Part shown: piece after piece, positions 1,104 through 62,566 of the stretch
How the letters are laid out: every line of letters begins with the position of its first letter
Numbering within the stretch: the first letter of the stretch is position 1
IMG/VR virus record: IMGVR_UViG_2883327909_000009
Location: 8,628-72,627 of that record
Strand: one strand, 5' to 3'
DNA length: 64,000 nucleotides
From: a virus
Program-made: the position numbers and the translations under genes
Notes under the pieces: generated by a model
The model's input: the letters and a program-made list of their open reading frames with translations, nothing else
The model's database searches: none
Told to the model about the DNA's origin: nothing

Positions 1104-1910
1104 TCAATCGACCTCAAGAACATGCTGAATCACCGGGTGTCGATATTCTGCTCCCCCTGTCAGCACGTGCAAGTTGGGCAGCATCTCCACTTCCCCTCCG
1201 CCGTGAGTGTGGCCGCACAGCACGGTCATGTCCCGATCCGGTGCACCGGCCATCGCCACCGCCATCACGTCCCCGACGGCCTTGCAGGTGAAGTGCGGTA
1301 GCCAGTCCTCGCCGGAAACTTTGCCATCGTGCCAGCAGGCCTCGCGGAACGGCGGAACGTGAGTCAATGCAACGACATGCCGGAAGCCCGTTAAGGCCTC
1401 GGGCAGCAATAAGCGGAGGCGGTCCGCCGAGTCATCGCCCAGAGCGTTGAGCTTCTTCAATCGCTCGAACTTCGACTCCTTGAGCCCATCGAATTCCTCG
1501 ATCAAGTCCCAGTCGTTGAGCATCACGGTAGACCCGTCGTAATCCCCGACCCGCCCGTCGCCCCAACCGTCCACGCCGACCAGGCAGGCATTCTCGGTGA
1601 GAGGAATGACGCCATCGTCCGTCATCCAGTGCAAGTTCGGGACGGCCGCACACAAGTCCCGTACCTTCTCCCGCACCCCGGCAATCGATCCCCGATAAAA
1701 GTCGTGGTTCCCCAGGACGAAGTAAACCGGTCGCTTGACGGACTCGGCGATGGCTTCGAGGTGCTCGACCACGTCGGGACCTTCGGCAATGTCGCCGGTG
1801 ATGGCAAACCCATCGGCTTTCGTGTCGGCGAGCGTGCGTAGGAAGTCATCCACAGCCGGGGGCGAGAGGAAGTTGAGGTGGATGTCAGTGAGCCATGCGA
1901 GGCGTTTCAT
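1104..1910 (-). CDS. calcineurin-like metallophosphoesterase (Icc/CpdA-like)
   Basis: DIH, GDIAE, GNHD, THVPP, CGHTH metal-binding motifs. Confidence 0.85.
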   Translation of the reverse strand: MKRLAWLTDIHLNFLSPPAVDDFLRTLADTKADGFAITGDIAEGPDVVEHLEAIAESVKRPVYFVLGNHDFYRGSIAGVREKVRDLCAAVPNLHWMTDDGVIPLTENACLVGVDGWGDGRVGDYDGSTVMLNDWDLIEEFDGLKESKFERLKKLNALGDDSADRLRLLLPEALTGFRHVVALTHVPPFREACWHDGKVSGEDWLPHFTCKAVGDVMAVAMAGAPDRDMTVLCGHTHGGGEVEMLPNLHVLTGGAEYRHPVIQHVLEVD

Positions 1911-1983
1911 CCGTGCGTTATGACAGACGAGGCCCCGCGGCGTCAATCCTTCTCAGCTTTATTTGATTTGTACGTGCGGCTTA

Positions 1984-2262
1984 TTAATCGATCTTCAGAT
2001 GCTTAAGCTTCACATGCGGCGACACCGGCTTTGAGGCCCTCGGCACGGCGGGCTGAGTTACTGGCGTGCTCACACGGAAGGAGGCCAGAAGTTGATCGAG
2101 GTCATCCTTGAGCACGAGGATTTTGCCCCGCTTCCCCGCCGCCCCGATCCGGTAATGCGCCAGCCGCCCGGTTTTCACCCAGTCGCGCACGAGGTTGGGG
2201 CAGACACAGCAATAGAACGCAGCCTGCTTGATGCTCATCATGGACGGAGTTTGAGCGGACAT
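1984..2262 (-). CDS. excisionase-family HTH DNA-binding protein
   Basis: 'SIKQAA...LVRDWVKTGRLAHYRIG...GKILV', HTH_17/Xis-like. Confidence 0.75.
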   Translation of the reverse strand: MSAQTPSMMSIKQAAFYCCVCPNLVRDWVKTGRLAHYRIGAAGKRGKILVLKDDLDQLLASFRVSTPVTQPAVPRASKPVSPHVKLKHLKID

Positions 2263-2334
2263 GGCGTTTCTCGCTCGACGATGTGGAAGGCCTGGAGGGA
2301 AGGGAAAGGGCGTCCATGCCCAGGTGGTGTTGCA

Positions 2335-2574
2335 TTAACCGGCACGGCGGGTAGTCAATCGCTTCCAGATGCAGAAGATCATGGCCGCCACGTACAGGGT
2401 AAATCCCATCCACATGTGCCAAGGGATACTCCGGGCGACCTTCCACCAGGAGTTCGGCACCGGCTTGGGCTTGGCGGCCTTTTCAGCGTACTCGGCGGGC
2501 TGCTGAACCGGCGCAACGGATGCCATCATTGGTAACGCTGGCCAGAGCAAGAAGGCAATTAACGCTGAGCGCAT
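2335..2574 (-). CDS. small membrane protein
   Basis: signal-like N-terminus, C-terminal TM helix, RBS upstream. Confidence 0.5.
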   Translation of the reverse strand: MRSALIAFLLWPALPMMASVAPVQQPAEYAEKAAKPKPVPNSWWKVARSIPWHMWMGFTLYVAAMIFCIWKRLTTRRAG

Positions 2575-2584
2575 GGGAGCCTCC

Positions 2585-2797
2585 TCAGTTGGAGCTGTAA
2601 GGCGGGAACGTCCACACGGGCTTGGCTTGGATCGCCTCTTCCACGGCCTGGGCAAAGTACCCGGCAATGACGAGCAGGCGTTGCTCGGGGGACAGCACGA
2701 GAATGGCGGGAAGTTTCAACGCCAGGTTCACGGCCTTATCTGCCGCGATGTCGGCCTTCACGCACCGGGGGCAATGGTTGGGCCATTTGTCGGACAC
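2585..2797 (-). CDS. hypothetical protein
   Basis: 70 aa with CxxC, in co-oriented run, GGAG RBS. Confidence 0.5.
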   Translation of the reverse strand: MSDKWPNHCPRCVKADIAADKAVNLALKLPAILVLSPEQRLLVIAGYFAQAVEEAIQAKPVWTFPPYSSN

Positions 2798-2816
2798 GAG
2801 TATCTCCTCTGGGGGT

Positions 2817-3928: not shown

Positions 3929-4489
3929 TCAAAACAGGGGCGGGCGATCGTTTGACCCGGAGCGATTCCGGGCTTCGTGCAGTGCATCGGCCTGGTCGGC
4001 GCGAATGTACGTCTCGCGGCGAGAGATCCAGTTCATCACCATGGCATGGCCTAAGCCTGCGGCAATCAGCCATGCCCCGAGGGCGTGATCCGCGTCGCGG
4101 ATGAAGAAGCCCGAACCCACGGTGATGGCGGCTTCGAGATAGCGGGCCCGGTGCGGGTCGGTGAACCAGCGGGCGAATATTGACGTTCCGATGTAATTGC
4201 TGTGAACGCTGCCATCGCGCTTGGCCTTCCCGGCTTGCAAGGCGGTCAATAGCAACGCAACCGGGGCGAGGCCGTAGGCGAGGAGTTCGCTCTGGCCGAA
4301 CAAGCCCCACAGGAACATGAGAGCCAATCCCATCCATGTCGCCGGGGAAGATGCCTGCCGCCATCCAATCGAGTGAGGGGCGGAGAAGCAGGTGCGGATC
4401 GGTGCCGAGCCAATGGACGCCAATACGAGAAAAGCGGTCTTACGCTGGGCGTGCGTCATGCCCTCGCGGGCTTGAGTTTGCGGGCTCAT
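3929..4489 (-). CDS. multi-pass membrane protein
   Basis: several TM segments; ATGA overlap with coupling-protein stop. Confidence 0.65.
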   Translation of the reverse strand: MSPQTQAREGMTHAQRKTAFLVLASIGSAPIRTCFSAPHSIGWRQASSPATWMGLALMFLWGLFGQSELLAYGLAPVALLLTALQAGKAKRDGSVHSNYIGTSIFARWFTDPHRARYLEAAITVGSGFFIRDADHALGAWLIAAGLGHAMVMNWISRRETYIRADQADALHEARNRSGSNDRPPLF

Positions 4490-4911
4490 AGTCGCTCCTG
4501 GGTGAAAGTTACCGGCACGAAGTTGTAGCCGGTGGACGGAAATACGGTTCCGGCTTTGATGTGCAGGCAATCGACTTTGAAGCCATGGCGGGCAGAGCCG
4601 GTGCGCATCCGAAAAAGTTCGCTCGGCTGAATCACGGCCTCGTAGATTTCGGACACGGACGCGCTGACTTGGGGGCCATCGGGGCCGCCGTTGTGGGAAC
4701 TGCCCGAGTTGTTGGCAAAGGACGTGCTCGAAGAAGTCGTGAATTTTCGCTCGCGGCCCATACCCTCGCAAACCCATTTGGCAGTACGGGGCGTAGGCAA
4801 AGCGACGAAAATGGAGGCCAGGTTACCGACGAGCGCGTCCACCTTGTCCTCGGCATGGCCGCCAGGGAACGCTCCGAGGATCGATTCATAACCTTGAACC
4901 GCGTAAACTAG
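4486..4911 (-). pseudogene. 3' fragment of type IV coupling protein (TraD/VirD4-like)
   Basis: reads 'LVYAVQGYESILGAF...TAKWVCEGMG', in frame with 5' part once IS630 is removed. Confidence 0.8.
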
Positions 4912-5023
4912 TGGCTTGTCACGCTTTGTTCGGCGGAAGGGTAAGTAGCCGTCGTGGAGGTGGGCGCGATAAGCTGATACCCGCATCAGGGATGCCGTAC
5001 CCCCTTTGACCACGAGAGCATAA

Positions 5024-5506
5024 ATGGCGAGTGCAGCGAGGGCCATGGCCGCGATCGCCGCGGCGATCGCGATCGTCCTCCCTACGCCCGGCTGCGGGGC
5101 TCGTTCGGGCCCGACCACGTACCAAGTTGCTCGGTCCGATGACGGGCGGTGCGAGTGCGAGGTCATCGAATACGTCGACGCGAAGGACTACGGCATGATG
5201 CTGGACCTTCGGATCGCCATGGACGGCCGGGAGGTGCTGGGCCGCTCGTACCTCGGGAATAAGCCTTGGGTCGGGAGTACGAGGCAATTCGTCGTCGGCC
5301 GGGTGGGGGCGTTCTACTGCCTGTCCGTGGCCGGGCACCCAGGGTACGCGCTCGCCGCCACGGACGCGACCACAGGGGCGGTCTGGTTCCAGTCCACTGA
5401 CGAGCCCAGCCGTTCCATTGACGACACCTTCGCGGCCACCCCCTCGTGGCCGAAGCTGACCGACCTCAACTGGATGAACGCCTTCGTCCTTGCCGCGGGT
5501 CGGTAA
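5024..5506 (+). CDS. IS passenger gene, putative exported/lipoprotein
   Basis: hydrophobic N-terminus followed by 'PGC'; lies inside IS ends, upstream of transposase. Confidence 0.55.
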   Translation: MASAARAMAAIAAAIAIVLPTPGCGARSGPTTYQVARSDDGRCECEVIEYVDAKDYGMMLDLRIAMDGREVLGRSYLGNKPWVGSTRQFVVGRVGAFYCLSVAGHPGYALAATDATTGAVWFQSTDEPSRSIDDTFAATPSWPKLTDLNWMNAFVLAAGR

Positions 5507-5564
5507 TCGGCGTGAAATGAACCGGCCCCGCCCCGCGCCCTTGCTCCCCGGTAGGATGCCCGCC

Positions 5565-6017
5565 ATGCCATGCAAGCGATACGTCGTGACCCTCACCGGC
5601 GAGGAGCGCGGGCGTCTGGACGCGCTGACTCGGGCCGGAAAGCGGTCCGCCCGGACCGTCACACGGGCCCGCATCCTGCTTTTGACAGACCAGACGGAAG
5701 GCGGGCCAGGGTGGGAGGACCGGCGGGTGGCCGAGGCCCTCGGGTGCGGGCACCGAACGGTCGAACGGATTCGGGAGCGGTTCGTCACCGAGGGCATCGA
5801 CGCCGCTCTCGCCACCCGGGCCCGGACTGCCCCGCCCCGACCGCCGGTCCTCGACGGGGCCGCCGAAGCGCGGCTGGTCGCACTGGCGTGTTCGGCAACA
5901 CCGGACGGCCGCAAGGCGTGGACCCTGCGGATGCTCGCCGACAAGCTGGTCGAGTTGGAGGTGGTGACCGCCGTGTCGTATGAAACGGTCCGGCGGACGC
6001 TGAAAAAAATGAGCTGA
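5565..6017 (+). CDS. IS630 transposase OrfA (HTH)
   Basis: 'KRYVVTLTGEER...RARILLLTD...LEVVTAVSYETVRRTLKK'. Confidence 0.9.
   Translation: MPCKRYVVTLTGEERGRLDALTRAGKRSARTVTRARILLLTDQTEGGPGWEDRRVAEALGCGHRTVERIRERFVTEGIDAALATRARTAPPRPPVLDGAAEARLVALACSATPDGRKAWTLRMLADKLVELEVVTAVSYETVRRTLKKMS
6003..6009 (+). other. A7 slippery site for programmed -1 frameshift
   Basis: CTGAAAAAAATGAGCTGA; -1 frame gives 'KKNELKPHLREQWCLP', the usual IS630 junction. Confidence 0.75.
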
Positions 6018-6706
6018 AGCCGCACCTGCGGGAGCAGTGGTGCCTGCCGGGCGGGCCGTCGGGCGAGTTCGTGGCGCGGATGGAGGACGTACTCGACGTG
6101 TACCACCGCCCGTACGACGAGGATCGCCCGCTCATCTGCATCGACGAGCAGCCGAAGCAGTTGGTGAGCGAGACCCGGGTGCCGCTCCCGCCCCGGCCCG
6201 GCTTACCGGCCCGGTACGACTACGAGTACAAGCGGGAGGGCGTGGCCAACCTGTTCATGCTGTTCCAGCCGCTGCTCGGCTGGCGGTACGTCATGCCGAC
6301 CGAGCGGCGGACGGCCAAGGACTTCGCCGAGGTGCTCCGGTGGCTGGCCGAGGACCTGTACCCGGATGCCGATCGCCTGGTGCTGGTCACCGACAATCTG
6401 AACACCCACTCGACCGCCTGCCTGTACGAGGCGTTCGACCCGGTCCGGGCGCGGCGGATCGCCGAGCGGCTGGAGTGGCACTACACGCCCAAGCATGGGT
6501 CGTGGCTGAACATGGCCGAGATCGAGTTCGCCGCCCTGTCGAAGCAATGCCTGGACCGCCGGATCGGGACGATGGCCCGGCTCCGCAAGGAGGTGGCCGC
6601 CTGGGAGGAGGAGCGGAACGAGCAGATGGTCGGAGTGAACTGGCGGTTCACCACGCCCGACGCACGGGTCAAACTCCGCTCACTTTATCCGTCAATCAAA
6701 GCGTGA
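6004..6706 (+). CDS. IS630 transposase OrfB (DDE)
   Basis: 'CIDEQP', 'LVTDNLNTH', 'SWLNMAEIE' DDE motifs; stop lies in right TIR. Confidence 0.9.
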
Positions 6707-6713
6707 CGGCCTA

Positions 6714-7839
6714 CTAGTGTGCCGCGGAACTGGCGTGACATGCTGATAAAGGTCTGGTCGTACTCGGTGAGGACGTTGGCCGCCTCATCGGCGCCGATCA
6801 AATGCGGGAGTGTCTCCGGCTTGATGCTTCGTTTCAGGATTTCAATCTCGACGAGGTGCTTGATCCCGCCGGCAATGAACTGACCGACTTGCTGCCAGGC
6901 GGAGTATGGGAAGTCAACGATGATGATGGCGTTCCGCGCGATGGCGTCGGCCAGGTTGAACGTCGATTCCGAAGCCAGCACCTTCGACGCAATCCCGGTG
7001 GACAGCACGTCAAGCACGCCGGTCAGGAAGGCGGTTATGATGGAGCGAGTTTTCGACGCGAGAGTGCAGATCTCTAGGGTGATGTACTCGTCGCAAATAC
7101 GGAACGATTCTTTGCGGCCATCGGCATTGCACCTCGCAAAAGCCGTGCGTAAGCAATGCGAGCAATATTTATCCTTCCACGAAGCGAGTGTGAGGTCTTT
7201 TGGTGACCGTGGCAGGCTGTGAACCACCGCGAGGATATTTGCGGGCGTGACCGGCTCATCGGCCAGGAGCAGCAGCAGGATGACGACGAAGGCTTTCCGC
7301 TTGTACGAGTTAACCCAGAACTGGTCATCACCACCACCGGACTTCGCCCCTGACCGTGAGGAAATCTCGGCGAAAACGTCTAACGCTTGGGACATCATCC
7401 GAGCCATCGTGACTTCGTCTGCCGCACCCATTCGAAACGAATCGAAAAAATTCAGCCGATGGGCGGCCGTCTGGTCGATGACGATCACATCCTTCTCGCG
7501 GCCAGTTTTCTTGGCCATGGCGAGATAGTCGGCACGGTCGGAGGGCTTGGCACATAGCAGCGTGAGGCCGAAGCCCGACTGCATGGCGTTCCGCAGAATA
7601 GTGAACAATGGTCCACTAGTCTTGCCGGAGCCTGTTTGGCCGAGGATAAGACAGCCCTGGACGATGTCCCGGTTGCAGTACGGGACGCCCGTGTTGAGCT
7701 CCAAGAAGCGATTGTCGAGGACATCGTTTGTGCCGCCTCGGGCTAACTTGCCTGTGGCCGCCCGTGACGTGTAGACGCTGTGCGCAACCAGCGCAAGCGC
7801 GCAGAAGCACAGCGATGCCGTGATCAAAATCTCGTTCAT
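6714..7839 (-). pseudogene. 5' fragment of type IV coupling protein (TraD/VirD4-like)
   Basis: N-terminal TM, Walker A GQTGSGKT, Walker B 'GADEA', 'SRQFRG'; interrupted by IS630. Confidence 0.85.
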
Positions 7840-7964
7840 TCTCCACCTCGATCTCATGGGTAACACTCCAGTTGGTTCGTGTGAATGAGGATCGGCGCGC
7901 ACGCCGGAACAGAAGCGGCGCGAGGCCGCCAAAAAAGAGGGCTCATGGTTGTTGAGTTCCGAGA

Positions 7965-8006: not shown

Positions 8007-8858
8007 TTACTTTGGCGGCAGGTTACCCTGGGCGAGCAGAGCCTTTGGCAGGTCTTCCATGGTGTAGCCGAGAGCGAAGATCTTAACGGCGATCTTGACC
8101 ACCTCGCGGCACGCACACTCCAAATCTTCCGGTTTGGCGTCGATGGGAAGTGTCCAAGAGAAGCATCCCCAGCGGATCACGATGAACATTCCGCGAGATT
8201 TCTTCTTCGGCTTCAACAGCGCCTTCACCTGCGCGAGCGTGTACCGATCTTTCGGCCCCATTCCCGAGAAAAACTCCAACGCTTCCGGCTTCGCCCGCTT
8301 CAACTCTGGGCTAGCCTGGAAGGGTAACTGCTTGTCGTGGATGCGTTGCTTTAGATCAGCAGGCAGGGCATCGAACGCCTTCAGCCGAGAGGCAACTGAA
8401 GCCGATACGCCGAACTTTTCCGCCGCCTGCGAGATCGTGCAGTCGTGCTCTTTGGCGAAGTCAGAGATGAGCTTCGCCGTCGAGGCAGGGTCTCTCTTCT
8501 CTTGGGTGTCCATCGCCAAGACGGCGGCGAGTTCCTTCTCGTCCGTGTCAATATCCTCGCGGATGAAGACAGGGACTACCTTCAGGCCAGCCTTCCTCGC
8601 CGCGCGTGCACGACGGTTGCCGCCGAGAATGCGAAACATTTTCGAGATGATGAGCGGTGAGAGCACGCCGTTTTCCTTGAGGCTCTCCGTGAGTTCGTCG
8701 AGCGATAGACCTTTCGGCTTCGTCGCTTCTCCGTCAGGGTCGCGGTCGTATTTGGCCACGAGGTTGTCGATGGGAAATTCAGGCACGTAGGTGCCGTTCG
8801 TGTTGCCACCGGCCAGTTGCTGTCTCTCGATGCGCGTAGCTTCCAATTGCGGCACCAT
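8007..8858 (-). CDS. ParB/RepB/Spo0J-family protein
   Basis: 'LDELTESLKENGVLSPLII...ILGGNRRARAA' ParB-N motif then HTH; start taken at ATG 8858 with GGAGG RBS. Confidence 0.85.
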   Translation of the reverse strand: MVPQLEATRIERQQLAGGNTNGTYVPEFPIDNLVAKYDRDPDGEATKPKGLSLDELTESLKENGVLSPLIISKMFRILGGNRRARAARKAGLKVVPVFIREDIDTDEKELAAVLAMDTQEKRDPASTAKLISDFAKEHDCTISQAAEKFGVSASVASRLKAFDALPADLKQRIHDKQLPFQASPELKRAKPEALEFFSGMGPKDRYTLAQVKALLKPKKKSRGMFIVIRWGCFSWTLPIDAKPEDLECACREVVKIAVKIFALGYTMEDLPKALLAQGNLPPK

Positions 8859-9107
8859 GGCAGTCCTCCAGAATTGGGAATGGGGATGAAGGTGGCGGGA
8901 GGTGAATGCGAGAATCACCTCCCGAAGAACTGTTCGCCCAGGGCGCATGAAGGTCAAACGTGTTTTCCGCTCACTCAGGCTGATCGAGTCCAATGGAAGA
9001 GAGGGTGGAATTCTGCCTAAAAACCATGGATTGCTCTTGTGATGTTGTTGAGGATCATTCTTTAATTCACGAACCCGCCTGCTCCCCTACCGTCTCAGGA
9101 GCGATTC

Positions 9108-10022
9108 ATGCAGTCCTTTAGTCTCTTTGCGGAATCGAAGCTCAAGGAGTTAGGAAAGAACGTATCCGATCTGGCATACGAGGTCGGTTACGGGAAATCC
9201 ATCGCTTACAAGTGGATGACTAGCAACAGGTGGCCCCGAGAGGCCTTCGAGAGAATCTGCCTTGCCTTGCAAATCCCCGCGATGACGCCGGATGAGGCAG
9301 AGGTAGAGTACGAGATGAAGTTCTTCTCGTCGCCGAAGCGGCCTGCGACTGACCCGTTCGGTATCCTCGACCGGCTTCGAGATTTGCCCCCGACGTCACT
9401 CCGCGCTGCCAACGATTTGGTCATGGAAGCTTTCGGGCTTCTGAACAAAAAACACGCCGTCATCATCGCGACCACGACGCTTATTCCGGCTCCGTTCTCC
9501 ACGGAGCCTGGTTCCAAGATGGCCGCCGCCGTCTGCCAGGCGATCAAAAACGGGTGCTGCTTCCTATTCCACACGCCCGACGTGATCAAGGTCGAGCAAC
9601 TCAAAACTGACTTCGGTTCTAGCGACGGCGTGGAAGAGGTGGCAACTTTCAAAAGCGGCTTCACACGGCTTCGGAACCGTCTGATCGACGTCTTGGAGGC
9701 AGAAGGAGAGCTGGAATGGGAATCAAGAGCCGATTGTCACCTCCAAATAGTAGCCACGCAGGGAGCCTTTGACTTCGTGAGCGCGTCTGAAACGACGACG
9801 CTGATTTCTGAAAGCGGCGGCCAGACGAACTGGACGAAGCGGGTACTCAAGCGTACGCCCGGAACCCTCGGCAGGATCGACGTGCAGCCGCCGCACGACT
9901 TGAACGAAACGCGGATGCGCCGCTTCTATACGGCACTGACGCGCACCAAATTTGCTGACGGAACCCATGCCGAGAAGATGTTCCGTGACGAGTTTTGCGC
10001 GAGGCTTAGCGGTCACGCTTGA
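9108..10022 (+). CDS. transcriptional regulator with N-terminal XRE-like HTH
   Basis: 'VSDLAYEVGYGKSIAYKWM...FERICLAL'; divergent from parB. Confidence 0.6.
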   Translation: MQSFSLFAESKLKELGKNVSDLAYEVGYGKSIAYKWMTSNRWPREAFERICLALQIPAMTPDEAEVEYEMKFFSSPKRPATDPFGILDRLRDLPPTSLRAANDLVMEAFGLLNKKHAVIIATTTLIPAPFSTEPGSKMAAAVCQAIKNGCCFLFHTPDVIKVEQLKTDFGSSDGVEEVATFKSGFTRLRNRLIDVLEAEGELEWESRADCHLQIVATQGAFDFVSASETTTLISESGGQTNWTKRVLKRTPGTLGRIDVQPPHDLNETRMRRFYTALTRTKFADGTHAEKMFRDEFCARLSGHA

Positions 10023-13130: not shown

Positions 13131-13138
13131 ATGCAACA

Positions 13139-50185: not shown

Positions 50186-51565
50186 ATGGCGATTGCCTAC
50201 AACTACGGCCTGCTCCAGGCCATCGCGCCGGAGAGCGCCAACGACCAGATCGGAGCCGTCGAGCAGAGCGCCCTGCGCCAAACGCAGAACCAGCTGGCGC
50301 AACAGCAGGCCCAAGCCGCCGCGATCCAGAACCAGTTCGCCCCTCAACTCAATCAGGTCAAACTCAAAGGGGAGCAAGATGCCCTTGAGAGCGCCCAGGC
50401 GGCCAAACTCGGCTCACTGCTCCAGAGCATCGACGCCATCCCCGACCCCGACCGGCGGCAGACCATGTACTCCAGCATGCTGCCGGTGTTCAAGAAGGTC
50501 GCGCCCGCGTTCGAACTGCCCGACGAGTACAACCCGGACATTACCGGCGTGGTGGCGGGGAGCGCGATTGATCCCAAGACGCGAATGGAGCAGCAGATCG
50601 GTTTGCAAAAAGCGCAATTGCTTGCGGGGACAAAAACCAACCAAGTGACGAGCGACGCCGATGGCAGCAAGTTCATCGTTAACAAAGTCACCGGAGAAAT
50701 TACCCCCTTCTCGGGCAGTCCGACACCCGAGAGTGGCGGTGTATTCCCGGCGGCCGACGGAGGCACGCCTCAACCGCCCGCATTCGGCTTTTCTCCCGTC
50801 GGCCTTGATCCCATGGCTCGTAAGAAGCAGATGGACACGGACGCCAAGCGGTTGCAGGCCTATCAGAACAACAAGCAGAAGGCGGAAAACGCCCTCCGCG
50901 CTCTCGACACGATGGAGCCGAACCTCGACAACTTCCGCACCGGCTCCGGCGGCGACTTCCGCATGAACCTGGACAAAGCCGCCGACGCATTCCTTCCGGG
51001 TGATGGGTTCAAAGCGAGTGCCGACGCGGCTAACAACATCGACAAGTCCAGTAACGATCTCGTGACGGAGCTTCAAGGATTTCAGTACGTCCCCGGCCAA
51101 CGGGGCAGCGTTCTGGGGCTACGCACCCTGCTAGCCAGCAAGCCCGGCGTTGGGCAGCAGGTAGAAACCAACAAGAACATCGTTGGCGGCTTGCGAAGCA
51201 AACTCAATAACTACCTGCTCTCGGAAGAACTTGCCCAGCAGTACAAGGAGGCCAACCCGTTTAAGTTGATCGACTCGAATGCCGAGAAGCTCGACGACGC
51301 CTTGAAGGCGCTTTACCCGCTCGAAACCATTGACCAAAAGAGCGGGAAAGTCACCTTCCACCCGGAAAGTGTCGAACGTATTCGAGCGGCCATTCCGGAT
51401 GCCATCGCCAACCCGCAAAAGTACCTCCAGGCCGTGCAGCAGCAAGGCAACACAGGTGCCGGGCCGTCTCAGCCGGTGACGGCACCCAAAGTCGGAACGG
51501 TCGAAGATGGGCACGTTTTCCTGGGCGGCGACCCGGCTGATCCCAACTCGTGGAAGGCTCAGTAA
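50186..51565 (+). CDS. putative DNA injection protein
   Basis: position; ends 'PKVGTVEDGHVFLGGDPADPNSW'. Confidence 0.65.
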   Translation: MAIAYNYGLLQAIAPESANDQIGAVEQSALRQTQNQLAQQQAQAAAIQNQFAPQLNQVKLKGEQDALESAQAAKLGSLLQSIDAIPDPDRRQTMYSSMLPVFKKVAPAFELPDEYNPDITGVVAGSAIDPKTRMEQQIGLQKAQLLAGTKTNQVTSDADGSKFIVNKVTGEITPFSGSPTPESGGVFPAADGGTPQPPAFGFSPVGLDPMARKKQMDTDAKRLQAYQNNKQKAENALRALDTMEPNLDNFRTGSGGDFRMNLDKAADAFLPGDGFKASADAANNIDKSSNDLVTELQGFQYVPGQRGSVLGLRTLLASKPGVGQQVETNKNIVGGLRSKLNNYLLSEELAQQYKEANPFKLIDSNAEKLDDALKALYPLETIDQKSGKVTFHPESVERIRAAIPDAIANPQKYLQAVQQQGNTGAGPSQPVTAPKVGTVEDGHVFLGGDPADPNSWKAQ

Positions 51566-54216: not shown

Positions 54217-54240
54217 CCAACTCACAGAAGGAACCCGTCC

Positions 54241-54573
54241 ATGGTCGCCATCGTCTACCCCAACTTCTCCTGGCCCGCCGCCGGAACCACGTCGAAGGCC
54301 GAGAAAATCGCCGGGAGCACCATCGCGGGCATCCGCATCCCCTCGGGGTTCAGCGGCACGTCGCTCACCTTCTTGGCGTGTGACGCCATCGACGGCACGT
54401 ACACCACGGTCAAGGACACGACCGGGGCGACAATCACCGTCACGGTCAGCGGTGCCGGGCACCACGTCGTCCTCCCCGCCAACTTCGCCAGCGTCGAGTT
54501 CTTGAAGCTCGTCTCCAGCGCCAGCGAGGCGGCCAACACGGTCGTCAAACTCTGCGTCCGCGAATGCCTGTAG
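54241..54573 (+). CDS. phage structural protein
   Basis: beta-rich, AAGGA RBS. Confidence 0.6.
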   Translation: MVAIVYPNFSWPAAGTTSKAEKIAGSTIAGIRIPSGFSGTSLTFLACDAIDGTYTTVKDTTGATITVTVSGAGHHVVLPANFASVEFLKLVSSASEAANTVVKLCVRECL

Positions 54574-54602
54574 TCCACCATTTCAGCCCGTTGAGGTAGT
54601 CC

Positions 54603-55988
54603 ATGTCGATTGTGTCCGTGCCGGTTGTCCGGTGCTTCTACCAGGGGCAGGTGGCCCCGAACGCCCAGGTGACCGTGTACCAAACCGGCACGACGAATAA
54701 GGTGATCGTCTATTCCGACGCCGCACTTACGGTCCCGATTAGTAATCCCGTGTCGGCCAACTCCAACGGCGAGGCCGGGTTCTACACCGCCAACACAGTC
54801 GCCCTCCGGCTCGACATCACCACATCGGGCGGCCAGGCCATCGGCACCTACGATCCCGTCTACCCGCTCGACTTCACCGGGGCGATTGCCACCTTCGTCG
54901 GCGATTCCGGCTCCGGAGGGGTTAAAGGCCTCGTCCCCGCACCGGCTTCGGGCGACGCGGCGGCCAACAAGTTCCTCTCGGCCAACGGCACGTTCCAAGC
55001 CGTCTCCTCCGTCTTCAACTACGTCAACAAGTTCATCAACAGCTCCATGGACGTGTGGCAACTCGGCACATCCGGCACCATCACGGCGGGTACGCCCTCC
55101 TACACGGCCGACGGGTGGATGGTCGGCTGCACCGGCGCGAACGTCACCTGGAGCCAAACCGGGCAGCGGGGCAACACTGCCTACGGCCTCAAAGTGACCG
55201 GGGCGGCGAGTGTGACGGGCGTGTTCTTCCGCCAGCGGATCGAAAGCCTGGCCTGTGCGAGCTTGCGGGACAGCGGGCCGAAACAAGTCACCATCCAGCA
55301 GCGGATTTACAACGGCACGGGGGGCGCGTTCATCCCGACGCTGACCGTCAAGCACGCCAACGCCGCCGACAACTGGACGGCCTCCACCACCGACGTAAAC
55401 GCGGTCAACCTTCAAACCTGCCCGGACGGTGCCCAAACGACCGTGGCCTACACGTTCACCACCCAGAGCGGCACGGCCAACGGGTTGGAAATCACCATCG
55501 ACTGCGGGAACAACTTCACCACCACCGGCAAGTCGGTCGAAATGAGCGAGCCCGACATCCGCGTCACGGCGGGCGTGCCAACCGGCCTCAACGCCTCGCC
55601 GCCCACCGTGGACTTCCGCCCGACGGCCACCGAGCTGGCCATCTGCCAGCGCTACCTGCCGTCGTTCGCCGCCTCTTCCGTCGGCAGCACCCTCGGTACC
55701 GCCGGGCTAACATCGTCCACCGTGGGGCGGATCACCCTCCCGTTCCCCGTGCAAACTCGCATCGCCCCGACCGGGGTTGCCGGGATTTCGATCACCACTC
55801 CGAGCCAGGTGTCGGTCGCCAACGCGAGCGGCGCGGTCGGCTGCACGACCCTCACCTTCCGCGAGGCGAGCACACTGGCCGCGACGCTCGACTTTACCAA
55901 CTCGGGCGGATTCACCGGCGGGCAAATCGCCTGGGCCACCTTCGCCAGTGGCTCCGGGCGGATCGTGTTCACGGGGGCACAGCTATGA
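54603..55988 (+). CDS. tail fibre/spike
   Basis: P22-like head-binding N-terminus ('VTVYQTGTT.....YSD...T..ISNP..A...G'); C-terminal 'ELAICQRY'. Confidence 0.8.
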   Translation: MSIVSVPVVRCFYQGQVAPNAQVTVYQTGTTNKVIVYSDAALTVPISNPVSANSNGEAGFYTANTVALRLDITTSGGQAIGTYDPVYPLDFTGAIATFVGDSGSGGVKGLVPAPASGDAAANKFLSANGTFQAVSSVFNYVNKFINSSMDVWQLGTSGTITAGTPSYTADGWMVGCTGANVTWSQTGQRGNTAYGLKVTGAASVTGVFFRQRIESLACASLRDSGPKQVTIQQRIYNGTGGAFIPTLTVKHANAADNWTASTTDVNAVNLQTCPDGAQTTVAYTFTTQSGTANGLEITIDCGNNFTTTGKSVEMSEPDIRVTAGVPTGLNASPPTVDFRPTATELAICQRYLPSFAASSVGSTLGTAGLTSSTVGRITLPFPVQTRIAPTGVAGISITTPSQVSVANASGAVGCTTLTFREASTLAATLDFTNSGGFTGGQIAWATFASGSGRIVFTGAQL

Positions 55989-56338
55989 CCAACGAAGAGC
56001 TAATGAATTGGGCATTCCCAGGATTCGTTACCGCCTGCATGGTCGTCATCGGGTTCTTCATCGCCCGGCTGATTCGAGGCTTTGACGACATGGAAAAGTC
56101 AGCCGCCCAATGCAAGGTCGAGCAGGCGACCATCAAGGGCGACATCGGCCGCGACATCAGCCAGCTCCGCTACCACCTGGCCGAGAACTACGCCACCAAA
56201 CTCGACGCCAACCAGCTCCGCAGTGAGGCGCTGGCCATTCGCGCCGAGACGCACGCCAGCCTGGAGCGCATCCACGAGCGGATCGACCAGCTTCCGAAGG
56301 AAATTATCAGCCTCGTGAGGAAAGGGAGCATCGAATGA
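55985..56338 (+). CDS. membrane-anchored coiled-coil lysis-cassette protein
   Basis: single TM + coiled coil, coupled to endolysin. Confidence 0.6.
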   Translation: MTNEELMNWAFPGFVTACMVVIGFFIARLIRGFDDMEKSAAQCKVEQATIKGDIGRDISQLRYHLAENYATKLDANQLRSEALAIRAETHASLERIHERIDQLPKEIISLVRKGSIE

Positions 56339-56826
56339 GTGAGGACTTCGACAAGGCGTTCGCCACGCTGATGAAGCTGGAGGGCGGCTACGTCAACGAT
56401 GCTGCGGATGACGGCGGCGAGACCAACTTCGGCATCAGCAAAGCCCAGTACCCGAACGTGGACGTGGCGCACCTGACCCAAGACCAGGCAAAGGCAATCT
56501 ACCGCAAGGACTTCTGGGACAAGTTTCGTTGCGGCGACATGCCGTTCCCCATCGGCGGGCTGCTGTTCGACTGTGTCGTGAACCACAACCCAACCAACCC
56601 GGTCAAGTGGATGCAAAGCAACATCGGCGTCCTGGCCGACGGGATCATCGGGCCGCGCACCGTGGCCGCCGCCCAAGCCAGCCGCGACCCCGTCGGCGTG
56701 GCGACCGAGATGACGGTCAAGCGCGTGGAGTACGTGAAAACCTTGCCCGACTACCCGCGGTTCGGCAAGGGGTGGCACGCCCGTCACGTCCGCGCGTTGA
56801 GTGCGGCCATCAGCAACTGGAGGTAG
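56335..56826 (+). CDS. GH108 endolysin with peptidoglycan-binding domain
   Basis: 'LEGGYVND..D.GGETNFGIS', 'DGIIGPRT', 'FGKGW'. Confidence 0.92.
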   Translation: MSEDFDKAFATLMKLEGGYVNDAADDGGETNFGISKAQYPNVDVAHLTQDQAKAIYRKDFWDKFRCGDMPFPIGGLLFDCVVNHNPTNPVKWMQSNIGVLADGIIGPRTVAAAQASRDPVGVATEMTVKRVEYVKTLPDYPRFGKGWHARHVRALSAAISNWR

Positions 56827-56828
56827 CC

Positions 56829-57089
56829 ATGATCGAACTGGTGAAGAACGGCGAAATCGAACTCGACAAAATTCCGGTTGTGGAGCCCGCGCCGAGGCCA
56901 CTCACGGCCACCGCCCTGACCATCGCCGACGAGCGGGGCAACGTCGTCACCGTGGCGGTTGACGCGAAAGGCGCGACCCATTGCAGGGCCACCTGCGTCA
57001 CGCCGGACGCCGTCTGCGAACTCGTGGACGCCGCTACGCACCTGCTCGACAACATCACCTTCCTGTCCACCGAAGAAATCCCGGAGTAA
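56829..57089 (+). CDS. hypothetical protein
   Basis: GGAGGT RBS. Confidence 0.55.
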   Translation: MIELVKNGEIELDKIPVVEPAPRPLTATALTIADERGNVVTVAVDAKGATHCRATCVTPDAVCELVDAATHLLDNITFLSTEEIPE

Positions 57090-57092
57090 CCC

Positions 57093-57515
57093 ATGCCCGT
57101 CTGGCTCGCCCTCATCGACCCCATCTCGAAATTGCTGGACCGCCTGATCCCCGATCCGGACGCCCGCGCGAAAGCTCAGCTAGAATTGGTCAAGGAGGAG
57201 AACGCCCAGGCCTTGCAGGAGCTGCAAATCGCCGCCCAGGCCGACGCCAACCAGGTCGAGGTGAACAAGGTCGAAGCCGCGAACGAGAACCTGTTCATCT
57301 CCGGGTGGCGACCCGCCGTGGGCTGGTGTTGCGCCCTGGCCTTCGCCTACAGCTTCGTCATCCAGCCGCTGCTCGCGTTCGCCATTTCAAACTCGACCGG
57401 CACGGAGGCGATTTTGCCCGACTTCGACATGGACGCGCTCAACACCGTGCTGTTCGGCATGCTCGGGATCAGCACGTTGAGGACGGTCGAAAAAGTGCGG
57501 GGCGTAAAAAAATGA
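57093..57515 (+). CDS. 3TM holin (GTA-holin-like)
   Basis: 'LLDRLIPDP', 'SGWRPAVGW', 'LFGMLGI..LRT.EK.RGV'. Confidence 0.85.
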   Translation: MPVWLALIDPISKLLDRLIPDPDARAKAQLELVKEENAQALQELQIAAQADANQVEVNKVEAANENLFISGWRPAVGWCCALAFAYSFVIQPLLAFAISNSTGTEAILPDFDMDALNTVLFGMLGISTLRTVEKVRGVKK

Positions 57516-57915: not shown

Positions 57916-59121
57916 TCAGGCGAAAGACTTCTTTCTTTCAGGCTTTATGGACTTGAGGCCCTGTTCATAAAGGGGAGTAAGTACCTGCTGATCGATCCAT
58001 TCGATAGCAGGCACGCATACCGCGTCGGCAAACCCCCAAAGTTGCTGAATCTCGCTTCCGACCAGTGGAAAGTCGGGTACTCCTTGGAGAGCGGCGTATT
58101 CAGCCGGGCTCATCCATCGCATTTTCATTCGCCCACTTCTGATGGAGATGACTATTTGCTTTGCACTTCCCCCCTTCGGGGTCCGTAGACATCCGGCAAT
58201 ACCATCAAACCTCACCTCAGCACGCATTTGTCCTTCCCTAATCCTTCTAAAAATTGTCCCTGTCCAGTCTGCCTTCGAAGCAACAATCTTATCCACCTGA
58301 CCACGATGCAGATCACTCATCATCGCGTAATGGCGAAGCACTTCGTGTTCGCTCCACCACGCCTGATCGTCGCCTACTGCTATCACATCTTTTAACTGTA
58401 TCTGCAACGAAGGTGGATTTGGCAGTTCAAATTCCACCCACCCTGTCTCCAATTCGATGTCTCTTTTCGCTCGCATGATGGCCGCGGATCGCAGTGGTGA
58501 TAGAGTCTGTGGCGGCCAGAGCCAACCCGCGCGCGCTTTTTCGACCGGTTTCAAATGCGAAAGAACTGCAATGATAAAAACGCGGGGCCGGCTCTGGGGT
58601 GTGAAGTGTGAGGCGTCTAAGACGAAGGCATCGAGCCAATACCCCAATTTGCTCAACGCACGAACAGCATCTGCGAAGTCTTCGCCGCCTCGCGAAGTTA
58701 ATAATCCGGTAACATTCTCAACCATAATTACTTGCGGCTGCCGAGATCCAAGTGATTTCACGACATCTATGAACCCAAAGAATGTCGAAGATTCCTTTCC
58801 TGCCAGTCCGCGATAATTCCCGGCCAAGCTAAGATCGACGCATGGAAAAGATGCGGTAGCCAAAAAAGGCTGACCTGGCATCCTGGTTACAACTGCGTTC
58901 GCATCCGTAATATCGTGAAGATGAAAGTGCTCATCCACGCCGAAACGAGCCTCGTACGCTTGCTGTTTTTTTGCACTAATATCATTCGCGTAGACGCATC
59001 TCCAGCCCGTTCGCACCAACCCCTCACGGACCAATCCGATACCCGCAAAGAACTCAGAGAATGTTTTCTCGCTAATCGTCTTCGTTCTCTTGGCAGGGAT
59101 TTTCTTGGTTTTCAAGCTCAT
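57916..59121 (-). CDS. C5 DNA cytosine methyltransferase
   Basis: FFAGIG, FPC, ENV, QSRPR motifs. Confidence 0.95.
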   Translation of the reverse strand: MSLKTKKIPAKRTKTISEKTFSEFFAGIGLVREGLVRTGWRCVYANDISAKKQQAYEARFGVDEHFHLHDITDANAVVTRMPGQPFLATASFPCVDLSLAGNYRGLAGKESSTFFGFIDVVKSLGSRQPQVIMVENVTGLLTSRGGEDFADAVRALSKLGYWLDAFVLDASHFTPQSRPRVFIIAVLSHLKPVEKARAGWLWPPQTLSPLRSAAIMRAKRDIELETGWVEFELPNPPSLQIQLKDVIAVGDDQAWWSEHEVLRHYAMMSDLHRGQVDKIVASKADWTGTIFRRIREGQMRAEVRFDGIAGCLRTPKGGSAKQIVISIRSGRMKMRWMSPAEYAALQGVPDFPLVGSEIQQLWGFADAVCVPAIEWIDQQVLTPLYEQGLKSIKPERKKSFA

Positions 59122-59160
59122 CCAGCACCTAACGGGCGACCGCGGTACGCATAGTCGGTG

Positions 59161-59186
59161 TACTTATAGTCTGTGGATTTGATTTC
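59161..59186 (+). promoter_or_regulatory. C-box operator
   Basis: TACTTATAGTC-TGTG-GATTTGATTTC upstream of C gene; fits GACT-N3-AGTC double-box pattern. Confidence 0.7.
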
Positions 59187-59210
59187 GTCAACCCCGAGAA
59201 TCTTCACCCT

Positions 59211-59465
59211 ATGGACCAACTTGACGTAAAAGTCCTTTTCGGTGCTCGCGTTAGGCATCTCCGAAAGGAACAGGGTTTCAGCCAAGAAGACTTTGCTCAC
59301 CGTGTCGGGCTCGATCGGAGCTACATGGGTGGGGTGGAGCGGGGTGAAAGAAACATTAGCCTTGAAAACATTTGTTTGATTGCAAGAGCATTGAATCTGC
59401 CCGTATCTCAAATATTCATCGGCTGGACCGATGTGGCTCCGCCTGAGAATACCCCTGAAGAGTGA
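59211..59465 (+). CDS. RM controller (C) protein, XRE HTH
   Basis: 'FGARVRHLRKEQGFSQEDFA...LDRSYMGGVERGERNISLENI'. Confidence 0.9.
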   Translation: MDQLDVKVLFGARVRHLRKEQGFSQEDFAHRVGLDRSYMGGVERGERNISLENICLIARALNLPVSQIFIGWTDVAPPENTPEE

Positions 59466-59544
59466 CTTTTTACTGTCGATTCTTGACCTCTTTAACGATT
59501 GGTTCGGAAATATCTTGGGCTGGCAGTCCAGCCAAGGCCTGACA

Positions 59545-60345
59545 ATGCCCCAGAAGAGACATGGAAAGAGCCGAATGGACGTTCTTTCGGGAATCGTGGC
59601 GCAAATTAAATCCGCAAAACGTGATTTAGACAAATACCAGCCCCATGAAGTAGACTGGAACCAGCATGCAGTAGCGGCAGCTGAGGAACTCGTGCCATGG
59701 TTGTCTACTGTCGTTCACGGAATGAAGGACTATGTTCAAGATGTATTAAATGCGCCTGCACTACTACGATCACTCTGGGGAACGATTCGCAAGCATGTCG
59801 ACTTACCTACAGAACAGATAGAGGCTTTCGATAGGCAACTGACACTTGATGATGTTCTCAGAGAGTCGGTCACCGGGGAAGTTATTAGCAATGTGGTGAC
59901 TAAGTATTTGATCGAGCATCATCCTACGGCTTCCCTCAAGTCGAACGGCCGAAGTGACTACCCCGATCTTTTTCTTAGCGATCGCGACTACACACTGTTG
60001 CCTGTTTTCAAAAGGATCAAGAAAATCCCTCTAAAAGAGGGCAAAGCTGAAGAGCAATATGGTGCTTCCATCAAGGGCTCCCATAAGCGCCCCGTAAGAA
60101 TTCCCGATGGGCTAGAGATCAAAACATGCCGAGACCGGATAGCCGTAGACTGTCATCATCCGCATGCTGGGCTTCATTTAATACTTTTGTTCTCCCACAG
60201 TAAACGAATATTTAATGTCAGCGACGTTCGGATCGGATTTCTTCGCCATGAGGACTACCGCGAGTCTAATCGCAATACTACCGCAACGACCGTGAAATAT
60301 TCCTTTAACGGAGACAGATTCTTAAGTTTGTTAAGCTCGTCGTGA
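59545..60345 (+). CDS. putative type II restriction endonuclease
   Basis: downstream of C gene, divergent from MTase; 'YPDLFL' and 'PDGLEIK' PD-(D/E)xK-like motifs. Confidence 0.7.
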   Translation: MPQKRHGKSRMDVLSGIVAQIKSAKRDLDKYQPHEVDWNQHAVAAAEELVPWLSTVVHGMKDYVQDVLNAPALLRSLWGTIRKHVDLPTEQIEAFDRQLTLDDVLRESVTGEVISNVVTKYLIEHHPTASLKSNGRSDYPDLFLSDRDYTLLPVFKRIKKIPLKEGKAEEQYGASIKGSHKRPVRIPDGLEIKTCRDRIAVDCHHPHAGLHLILLFSHSKRIFNVSDVRIGFLRHEDYRESNRNTTATTVKYSFNGDRFLSLLSSS

Positions 60346-60653
60346 TTAATACGGGCCATTCCTTCCCTCAGCAAACATATGTCATTTAAGCAATGGTGAA
60401 GGAGCAACCGCCTTGAAGCGGCCGAAATGTAAATAACGGGGTTAGGCCTCGTCCAGCTGGGCGCTGGAATGCACATCCCGAAGACATTTAGCCCGGCTGA
60501 ATTGTTGGCGGCGGTTGAATGGGTGATGGGTAGGATTGGAGACTATCCGTTTTGGAAGAGGTGGTCAGGTATAGGTCGATCCGCTGACACTTACGGCATG
60601 CTTAGGTGGAATTGAAGAGAGCGGAGGGCAGTAACCCACCCCCCTAGCAGACA

Positions 60654-60755
60654 TCACTCGTTATCCTGCTTCTTCCAAACGTTCCACAAGGTCAAGCCCT
60701 GAAAGACCGCTGAAATCGCTTTCAAAACGAGGTCCGCCACGTAGTAGGCTTCCAT
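60654..60755 (-). CDS. 33-aa hydrophobic peptide
   Basis: GAAAGGAG RBS; MEAYYVADLVLKAISAVFQGLTLWNVWKKQDNE; hairpins on both sides. Confidence 0.45.
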   Translation of the reverse strand: MEAYYVADLVLKAISAVFQGLTLWNVWKKQDNE

Positions 60756-61030
60756 CTCACACTCCTTTCCTCCCGCAAAGCCCTCTCCCCGACCGTGGGA
60801 TCGTCGGAAGGGAGGCTGCCACTCGGCAACCCGCCCGAGGCCACGCAACTGGCCCCCGGTGGATTGCCGAGCGTCGAAAGGCGTTAGTGATTGTTGGTAC
60901 GGCGTTACCGCCGAACTCGCCTAACCACCCCGAGCTGGGGTAGTATTCGTCTGCTGAACAAGAGTGTACCAAGCCGGGAATTGGCGGCCAGAGAAATTGT
61001 TCGAAAGTCGGTGCGAGCGGTCGGTAAGAA

Positions 61031-61195
61031 TTGCTGGACATCGGTGAACAACTCTACGAACCTCGCGGGCAATCCAAGCTGGCAGGGGCGTTATCTATCT
61101 CCACCCGCACGATCCGCTACTGGCTGGCCGGGAAACGAAAAATCCGCCCGGTGATCGCCAAGCGGATTCACAGCTTGAAGTCAAAAGTTGACTAA
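61031..61195 (+). CDS. small Cro/Aca-like HTH protein (TTG start or 5'-truncated; not in ORF track)
   Basis: 'GEQLY...QSKLAGALSISTRTIRYWLAGKRKI'. Confidence 0.5.
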   Translation: MLDIGEQLYEPRGQSKLAGALSISTRTIRYWLAGKRKIRPVIAKRIHSLKSKVD

Positions 61196-62397
61196 GACGC
61201 TTTCTCGACCGTCGAGTTGACCGCGGCCAGCAGGTGCTCGCCGTCGGTCGAGAGACTTTCATAATGGCGGCAGAGCATGGAGGCGTCACGATGCCCAAGC
61301 AACGTCGCCACGGTAATCGGGTCGTGCCCCTCCTTCAGCTTCCGGGTCGCGAAAAGATGCCTTAAATCATAGAGCGCAAACCGTTGCTTCCCCTTCCGCG
61401 CCAGCGCAGCTCGCTCCTTCCTTCGATCAATCACCGCCTTCTGATGAGCCGCCCGCGCCTCGGCGAGCTTGGCCGGGCCCTTGTACCGACGGCGGTCGAA
61501 GCGCGGCAGAGGAGGGATCGTTTCGATTGCCCCCGACATTTTCACGAGCAGCCGCTGGAAGCGTGAGACGACCGCCTGGGCCCGCCACGGGTTGCCGTCG
61601 ATGTTGCGGAACAGTTTCCCCGTCGGGCGGATGGACCTCAACTTCGCGAGACTTTCCTCGGCGGCGGTGGTCAGGTAAATGACCCGCCAGCGGCGCTTGC
61701 CCTTCGCCTCGGCGGGCGGGATTTCGATCCGGTGCTTGTCCAGGTGGACGTGCCGGGCCTCGATCAGGCGAGCCTCCTGGGGCCGCACACCCACCTCGTA
61801 GGCGAAGATCAGCAAGTCGCGGAAGGCCGCGTCTTTCACGAAGCCGAGCAACCGGGTGAAGTCGGCGGCCGTGACCGTGCTCTCGCGCTTCGTGGCCTGG
61901 GGCTTCTCCACGCCGTTGACCGGGTTCTTGTCGAGGTAGCCGAGCTTCACCGCCCAGTTGAACGGACGCAGCACGGCGACGATGGCACCCCGGCGTTGGT
62001 TCGCTCCCCACTTGGCGTGAGCCGGGCTATCGACCCAGTCTTGCAGGTGGTGCGGTTTCAGGTCGGTCGGCAGGAGCGTCTTGGCCGAGGGCTTGAGCGA
62101 CTTGCAGAAGCTTTGCAGGTGCTCGGTGTACCACTCCAGGGAGCGGCCGGCACGGTGCTTCTCGGTCCAGGAGAGGAACTTGTCGAGGAGTTCCGCGACC
62201 GAGAGTTCGGTAGATTTCTTTTCGCGCGAAACGGGCGATGGCCGGGGAGCCGCCATCACGCGATAGAATTCGGCCCACGCTGCTTTCTCGGTAACAGCGT
62301 TTTTAGGACCGGGGGTGAGCTTGATTTGCTGCTTGCCGACCTGGACGTACCAGGCGTTGCGGGCGGAACGAAAAAAGGGTTTTGGCGAGTGGGACAT
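61192..62397 (-). CDS. tyrosine recombinase/integrase
   Basis: R (GVRPQEA), K, H-x-x-R variant (YDLRH), H/Y ('LLGH...RHY'); adjacent to tRNA 3' end. Confidence 0.93.
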   Translation of the reverse strand: MSHSPKPFFRSARNAWYVQVGKQQIKLTPGPKNAVTEKAAWAEFYRVMAAPRPSPVSREKKSTELSVAELLDKFLSWTEKHRAGRSLEWYTEHLQSFCKSLKPSAKTLLPTDLKPHHLQDWVDSPAHAKWGANQRRGAIVAVLRPFNWAVKLGYLDKNPVNGVEKPQATKRESTVTAADFTRLLGFVKDAAFRDLLIFAYEVGVRPQEARLIEARHVHLDKHRIEIPPAEAKGKRRWRVIYLTTAAEESLAKLRSIRPTGKLFRNIDGNPWRAQAVVSRFQRLLVKMSGAIETIPPLPRFDRRRYKGPAKLAEARAAHQKAVIDRRKERAALARKGKQRFALYDLRHLFATRKLKEGHDPITVATLLGHRDASMLCRHYESLSTDGEHLLAAVNSTVEKAS

Positions 62398-62493
62398 GGC
62401 AGTAACCGCTCCGAGGAGCCGAGGTCTCTGCCACCATTCTCTGCCACGGCGGCAGAGAACATGTGTCCGTTCGTCAAAACCCTTGTTTTCTAG

Positions 62494-62566
62494 TGGTCAC
62501 TCCCGGGATTGAACCGGGGACCTAGCGATTTTCAGTCGCTCGCTCTACCAGCTGAGCTAAGTGACC
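62494..62566 (-). tRNA. tRNA-Phe (GAA), CCA not encoded
   Basis: GGTCACT/AGTGACC acceptor, D-loop AGCTGGTAG, anticodon loop CTGAAAA, T-loop TTCAATC. Confidence 0.97.

Follow-up and report, generated by a model that had tools for sequence, protein, structure and literature searches.

Phages and conjugative elements are usually viewed as separate systems of DNA transfer. A study by Huang and colleagues in ISME J in 2023, as cited in PMC12282955, reportedly describes tandems of a phage with an integrative and conjugative element (ICE), as well as nested structures of the ICE::Phage and Phage::ICE types. Here we analyzed a locus in which genes of both kinds lie within a single element. The window, i.e., the whole 64,000-nucleotide stretch that was analyzed (positions 8,628 to 72,627 of IMG/VR record IMGVR_UViG_2883327909_000009), corresponds to G000:C1:7207764-7271763 of a 9.378-Mb single-contig chromosome with 65.6% GC, and the host is a member of the Gemmataceae (Planctomycetota). 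The element, which is 62,717 bp long and integrated at a tRNA-Phe gene, is likely to be a temperate phage genome with a built-in conjugation-type DNA-processing module. It is akin to known composites of phages with ICEs or with integrative mobilizable elements (IMEs).

The 612 phage-ICE tandems described in a recent survey come from seven phyla (Huang et al., Sci Adv 2026; PMC13651849). They arose by accretion, their integrases are separate, and the authors state explicitly that they are not hybrids. Each consists of two elements with their own integrases and an attachment (att) site between them, and the ICE part contains a full type IV secretion system (T4SS). The word "Planctomycetes" is absent from the main text of that paper, and our full-text literature searches on planctomycete relaxase or prophage work returned nothing relevant. 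As in the tandems, a prophage and conjugation-type genes are joined here at a tRNA/att site and could in principle exit as one circle; tandem accretion is also seen at this tRNA-Phe, but only with a neighboring element. Unlike the tandems, the element has a single integrase, a single att pair and no inner att. Its relaxase, coupling protein (T4CP) and ParB-like protein are not accompanied by a mating channel, and their genes form part of the phage early operon.

The element also resembles IMEs, which carry a relaxase and a T4CP without a T4SS, in its tyrosine integrase at a tRNA gene, its Xis-like recombination directionality factor (RDF), its MOBF relaxase, its VirD4-like T4CP and its dependence on a helper channel, and it has both a recombinase with flanking att sites and a relaxase with intact motifs. 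However, 37 kb of it is phage, whereas IMEs have no complete set of virion, lysis and packaging genes. A T4SS of its own with a VirB4-type ATPase, as in an ICE, was not found at Pfam level. With the P22-like podoviruses P22, Sf6, Xfas53 and VvAW1 it shares a Terminase_2 small subunit, a Terminase_6 large subunit, a P22 portal, scaffold, coat, a gp10-like Hc3 head-closure protein and ejection proteins, together with a lambdoid early region with RecT and NinB. It differs from them in size (about 60 kb versus 33-44 kb), in having its integrase and Xis at opposite prophage ends, in a 25-kb left-arm stretch with the relaxase, T4CP and ParB-like genes, and in its planctomycete host. Phage-plasmids of the P1, N15 and SSU5 groups likewise combine phage and plasmid-type genes, with a ParB-type protein, in one replicon, but the present element is integrated, and neither a ParA nor a plasmid Rep was found among the open reading frames (ORFs) scanned.

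Boundaries and unity of the element

An earlier note on the window had placed an integrase at tRNA-Phe and an excisionase about 59 kb away, and had seen no att duplication between the ends of the window. All three observations were borne out. The tyrosine integrase gene (61192-62397, - strand; identified with Pfam) adjoins the tRNA-Phe(GAA) gene detected in the window (62493-62566, - strand), which is the integration target. In genome-wide scans with PF00589 and PF00239 it was the only match inside the window, where no serine recombinase was found, and it is the sole recombinase of the element. The candidate Xis/RDF is an Xis/AlpA-type HTH_17 gene (1984-2241, - strand; Pfam) about 59 kb from the integrase.

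A 48-bp repeat, attL, spans the 3' 47 nt of tRNA-Phe (62492-62539). The earlier note had proposed a search for a second att to the left of the window, and we found it there: attR, identical to attL at 47 of 48 positions, lies outside the window at -225 to -178 relative to its start (genome 7207538-7207585). No further copy was found between attR and attL in a search that tolerated as many as 12 mismatches over 48 bp, or three in 20-mers. The element is therefore a single att-bounded unit of 62,717 bp (59,987 bp once its two insertion sequences (IS) are subtracted). Direct repeats flanking the phage part alone, or the left arm alone, were limited to 12-13-bp matches, i.e., chance level. Because the integrase and Xis genes are at opposite ends, excision would have to take the whole unit. 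A single att pair, a single integrase and a single Xis gene support one integrative element rather than two nested ones. Of the two alternatives offered by the earlier note, the structure thus favors a mobilizable prophage, while the lack of an inner att and of repeats around either sub-element, as well as the single recombination system, speaks against nested insertions.

A third att copy, identical to attL at 48 of 48 positions, is located at window position -50169, 49,944 bp to the left of attR. The tandem array at tRNA-Phe has two members, of which the present element is the one nearer to the tRNA. The other member, neighbor A (49.9 kb; genome 7157594-7207585, window -50169 to -178), is a decayed mosaic in tandem at the same att. 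It contains a tape-measure remnant, a GH43+CBM35 protein, a Ser/Thr kinase, two integrases and many copies of a dispersed repeat of about 240 bp; the reading frame of its 562-aa integrase (HTH_17 plus integrase domain) crosses the middle att copy.

Phage genes, the relaxase module and their recurrence

The P22-like virion gene set reported in the earlier note proved, with both Pfam and PHROGs, to be a complete late set. The virion module (36549-55988, + strand throughout) begins with terS (36549-37190; Terminase_2, 1e-26) and terL (37126-38565; Terminase_6N/6C), followed by the P22 portal (38582-40723; P22_portal, E = 5e-179), a scaffold gene (Phage-scaffold, 2e-5, 24.8 bits, just below the 25-bit cut-off) and the coat (44051-45280; P22_CoatProtein, 7e-40). 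An Hc3/gp10-like head-closure protein (phrog_578, 1e-73) and DNA-ejection proteins (phrog_598) are also encoded, and a 461-aa protein lies at the distal end. A lysis cassette (56335-57515, + strand) follows, comprising a GH108 endolysin with a peptidoglycan-binding domain, a small ORF and a holin with three transmembrane (TM) helices. On the other side of the virion genes is an immunity/replication region (29293-36246), with divergent small regulators (30.4-31.4 kb) and a DUF1376 replication-type protein (31601-32440). It is 80-93% identical in DNA sequence to a prophage remnant, E2, at 4.38 Mb in the same genome.

From 29.5 kb leftward, all on the - strand, runs the early operon: genes for a Gp157-like protein, RecT and NinB (27045-29537), an IS5-family insertion (26067-26987), the single-strand DNA-binding protein SSB (25441-25893), orf112, a 190-bp gap, and then orf120, the relaxase and orf132 (21359-24785). 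The relaxase gene and the phage recombination genes thus form part of one run on this strand. SSB homologues with 58-63% identity occupy the same place in two other prophages, E3 and E4. The IS5 has a copy with 99.7% identity at 4.445 Mb. The non-coding gap (24786-24976), upstream of the relaxase sub-operon, contains a perfect 9+9 palindrome (24951-24968), and positions 24823-24932 are conserved at 80% in E2; it is a candidate origin of transfer (oriT) or promoter.

The earlier note had listed a relaxase, a ParB and a coupling protein. The relaxase is an 887-aa MOBF (TrwC) relaxase-helicase (21741-24404), with matches to TrwC (E = 5e-62, residues 11-283), AAA_30 (397-584) and UvrD_C_2 (762-810). 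Its catalytic residues are intact: Y16, Y24, D82, H147, H162 and H164, as well as the helicase Walker A motif, were invariant in a 15-sequence alignment that included the window protein. The relaxase-orf132 pair is also found in E2 and in genomes G601, G571 and G547. The ParB assignment likewise stood, as a ParB_N-domain protein (8007-8993, - strand; Pfam) whose gene is always directly upstream of the T4CP gene in related elements. For the coupling protein the identity was right, but the gene (4486-7932, - strand) is split by a 1.8-kb IS630-family element (4907-6717). Both pieces (7932-6718 and 4906-4486) align to one 511-aa protein of E3, and deletion of 1809 bp of IS630 restores a single frame of 545 aa. 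The protein is VirD4/DotL-like, with a TM helix and a Walker A motif. A profile of its seven-member family, in which an N-terminal hydrophobic TM helix is followed by GxTGSGKT, matched Legionella IcmO/DotL with an E value of 1.9e-9 in two stretches over Walker A and Walker B, and the E3 orthologue gave weak Pfam matches to T4SS-DNA_transf (21.0 bits versus a cut-off of 20.1) and TraG-D_C. Because IS630 has two 100% identical copies elsewhere (0.897 and 0.920 Mb), the disruption is recent. The IS630 also carries extra ORFs (153 and 175 aa) ahead of its DDE_3 part, and these are present in all three copies.

The layout of phage genes with relaxase, ParB and T4CP recurs in at least eight other diverged elements, from two planctomycete families. 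E3, in the same genome (6597876-6659095), is a 61,220-bp IMG/VR provirus (UViG_2883327909_000008). Among its genes are terL, those for a DUF4055 portal and the sheath of a contractile tail, and one whose product weakly matches the P22-type coat; a DnaC-like loader, a PD-(D/E)XK exonuclease and an AAA_24 protein are also encoded. Its early genes follow nearly the order of the window, i.e., SSB (63% identity), DUF3268 (80%), relaxase (37%), GP88, ParB and T4CP, and both its relaxase (genome 6643110-6645833) and its T4CP (6651226-6652761) are intact. The limits given for E3 depend on the IMG/VR call and on a weak integrase ORF at the far end, as an att search for E3 found no repeat of 16 bp or more. 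Between its ParB-like and T4CP genes, ARAGORN calls an 82-nt tRNA-Ala(UGC)-like sequence (genome 6651132-6651213; L055:11132-11213), which may be spurious or a structured RNA. The remnant E2 (genome 4378000-4394800) matches the 27.8-36.4-kb part of the window with 80-99% DNA identity. It has no virion genes and an IS-cut RecT, and retains residues 662-887 only of the relaxase, orf132 and an integrase.

An alignment-based scan of IMG/VR gave five more records with E3-like relaxases. Three proviruses of 57-86 kb (G636, G638 and G639) have terS, terL and coat on one arm and the relaxase, ParB and divergent T4CP on the other. In Tundrisphaera lichenicola P12 (Isosphaeraceae; NZ_CP195106.1, 6679454-6703543; locus L179), terL lies 20.7 kb from an E3-like relaxase, and when the relaxase and Terminase_6C surveys of the family were crossed, three further genomes (G620, G544 and G555) showed the same divergent layout, with terL 15-17 kb from the relaxase. 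Only alignment-based scans gave such matches: single-sequence relaxase searches of viral and genome contigs returned none, and a DNA-level search of 100 relatives with 14-34 kb of the window returned just IS and short matches. In a quick maximum-likelihood tree (IQ-TREE) of 44 sampled relaxases, the phage-linked ones fell in one part of the tree, and none of 500 label shuffles was as clustered. They were separate from a strongly supported clade of 17 of the 44, which included some island relaxases (G056 and G099). Recurrence in other prophages shows that the linkage of phage and relaxase genes is not accidental but has been conserved within a phage lineage.

Competing explanations and the state of this copy

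In the reading that we prefer, a temperate phage with a built-in conjugation-type module, the phage combines a P22-like module for head, ejection and lysis functions with a lambdoid region for immunity, replication and recombination. Its long leftward early arm carries the MOBF relaxase-helicase, the ParB-like protein and a membrane-anchored VirD4/DotL-like ATPase, and ends in the Xis-like gene. On induction, Int and Xis would excise the whole 62.7 kb as one circle, which could leave by either of two routes. TerS and TerL may package it by a headful mechanism; alternatively, the relaxase would nick the candidate oriT (24786-24976) and the T4CP would pass the DNA to a mating channel supplied in trans.

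The present copy has probably lost its competence for both routes, because its T4CP gene is split by IS630, IS5 lies upstream of the relaxase, no T4SS ATPase is detected in the genome, and its length of about 60 kb exceeds the 33-40 kb of phages with related portals. The earlier note had already remarked that more than 62 kb exceeds what P22-like heads usually package. In agreement with this, the 25 best phage portal matches belong to genomes of 33-40.5 kb, and the element is larger than the 33-44 kb of known P22-like members, so that by this measure the genome would not fit the head. This suggests a mosaic, with a head module that is probably too small for the genome and a mobilization module that is currently broken. 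The late module may be a recombinational replacement, since relatives with the same left arm are proviruses of 57-86 kb and E3, the one of them that was examined, has a contractile tail.

Several findings weigh against the phage reading and its mobilization route. Mobilization of the element by conjugation is a prediction from its gene content. Like the earlier note, which had seen no VirB4 in the window, we obtained no match above cut-off to VirB4, TraC_F or AAA_10 (PF03135, PF11130 and PF12846), here in the whole genome, although these channel searches were made at Pfam level, which a very divergent channel would escape. VirB4 is scarce in the family as well, being found in two of 201 Gemmataceae genomes as against 72 of 201 for the relaxase. 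No nic or oriT motif common to the window relaxase and other loci emerged from the upstream regions of 30 relaxases. The borders of the IMG/VR proviruses are software calls, and the window relaxase is sister to the E3-like clade with just 80% support in an approximate likelihood-ratio test on the quick tree. P22-type portals are rare in the family, occurring in one of 200 other genomes at 31% identity. Finally, most relaxases of the family are found in tRNA islands without a nearby Terminase_6 gene, and it is plausible, from the homologies described below, that the left arm is itself of island origin.

Those homologies concern the integrase, Xis, relaxase, orf132, ParB and T4CP, all of which have counterparts in tRNA-integrated islands of other Gemmataceae genomes. 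The integrase is 59% identical to that of a relaxase-bearing island at tRNA-Asn in G571; integrase and xis occur together at tRNA-Arg in G056, and homologues of the candidate Xis adjoin the integrase in the relaxase islands of G056 and G503. No phage gene was detected in the islands, and an island-type ancestry of the left arm would follow from this. Attempts to size the islands by a repeat of the tRNA 3' end (in G056, G571, G251 and G547) found none within 40 kb, except for a 15-bp match in G251. A conserved 20-nt motif, AGGCTGGCTGCGGTGGAGCA, lies at a fixed distance of about 70 bp upstream of the island-clade relaxases (L014, L066, L070, L073, L074, L075 and L079); it may be an oriT or a promoter element, and the window element lacks it.

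The common occurrence in the family of islands with a homologous integrase (up to 59% identity), xis, relaxase, ParB and T4CP, and with no detected phage genes, is also what would be expected if the element were an accidental composite. A mobilizable tRNA island and a P22-like prophage of about 37 kb would have merged, through accretion or recombination, and lost the inner att and integrase, and the product would have no selected dual function and be decaying. The phage part alone, which extends between SSB and the tRNA, measures about 37 kb and would fit the 33-40 kb of its relatives; the two IS insertions, and the tandem array with a decayed 49.9-kb neighbor, are in keeping with such a history. 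We nevertheless regard it as unlikely. Searches for an inner att or integrase turned up no relic of either, and the gene order is inverted relative to the integrase: most islands examined read int-xis-T4CP...relaxase, while the element reads int-[phage]-relaxase...T4CP-xis, and simple tandem insertion therefore does not explain the structure. Furthermore, the same linkage in at least eight other diverged prophages of two planctomycete families, whose relaxases group on the tree, would not be expected of an accident. It could also be argued that relaxase, ParB and T4CP serve the phage itself, either to start rolling-circle replication of the excised genome or in a planctomycete-specific export route. 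ICE relaxases do start rolling-circle replication, the module lies within the early operon beside SSB and RecT, and it is conserved in phages of hosts with almost no detected VirB4-type channel. However, the same trio is typical of integrative mobilizable islands, the phages have replication genes of their own (DUF1376 here and the DnaC-like loader in E3), and we know of no role in replication for a membrane-anchored coupling ATPase; we consider this explanation improbable. Assembly artefacts at the junctions, which the earlier note had named as a refuting condition, could have arisen if phage and relaxase contigs were misjoined at IS repeats; the 99.7-100% identical paralogues of IS5 and IS630 would be in keeping with this. 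The relaxase-to-SSB junction is repeat-free, the T4CP halves around IS630 join in frame, E3 and external genomes share the architecture, and E2, in the same single-contig genome, has the same phage-relaxase linkage at just about 80% identity. We therefore judge an assembly artefact to be extremely improbable.

A broader version of the preferred reading, which we put forward tentatively and with more doubt than belief, is that Planctomycetota host an old lineage of temperate tailed phages with a working relaxase, ParB and T4CP, self-mobilizable by a second, virion-independent route. Such a route would use an unrecognized mating or export channel, because VirB4-type T4SSs are hardly ever seen in the hosts; for example, no VirB4 was present in five complete Gemmataceae genomes that have between one and four relaxases. 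A 799-aa protein at 1.534 Mb with a weak AAA_10/DUF87 match was considered as a hidden VirB4 and rejected, as it is FtsK. TrwC-type relaxases are very common in Planctomycetota, often with several copies per genome and many fragments (>525 matches in the species collection). How the numerous relaxase/T4CP elements of this phylum move, given the near absence of known mating channels, is the question that these counts raise.

What sets the phage lineage apart is the retention, across diverged phages of two planctomycete families, of mobilization genes inside the phage early operon and under one integrase. If the module works, such phages could escape a receptor-limited host range. T. lichenicola P12, a named strain with a complete genome record, would offer a practical experimental model, while the present copy is mainly of value as a well-bounded but damaged example.

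Accessory genes and cargo

GC content across the window ranges from 48 to 67%, with values near the genome mean in the virion genes and much lower ones in several cargo genes. The left-arm end carries orf166 (- strand, reaching -57), orf84 (453-707, - strand) and a metallophosphoesterase gene (1104-1946, - strand) with a 65% identical homologue in provirus G638. Between the ParB gene and the relaxase sub-operon lie accessory early genes that are common to other prophages and islands (11724-18800). Besides small ORFs, these include genes for a DUF4942 methyltransferase (11724-13130), a GP88-like protein (16622-17131) and a DUF3268 zinc-finger protein (18261-18800). They are followed, on the opposite (+) strand, by a low-GC gene with SIR2 and Ser/Thr kinase domains (18964-21333), a defence-type cargo.

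In addition to the genes already described, the immunity/replication region contains a DUF3775 gene and a low-GC leucine-rich-repeat cargo (34283-35632), as well as a GIY-YIG (SegE-like) endonuclease ORF (29787-30257), which has homologues in IMG/VR contigs L102 and L107 and may be a homing endonuclease. Separating the lysis genes from the integrase is a cassette of low GC content (about 50%; 57916-60345), which encodes a C5 cytosine methyltransferase (57916-59121, - strand) and ORFs of 171 and 304 aa, and may be a restriction-modification moron. The ORFs at 9108-10022, 14491-15090, 50186-51565, 54603-55988 and 59431-60345 had no match in Pfam or PHROGs, and a single-sequence portal search of viral contigs likewise gave no match. 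Within the virion module, a 603-aa protein with a GDSL-esterase domain (40723-42534) is encoded between the portal and the scaffold, a position that is unusual for P22-like phages.

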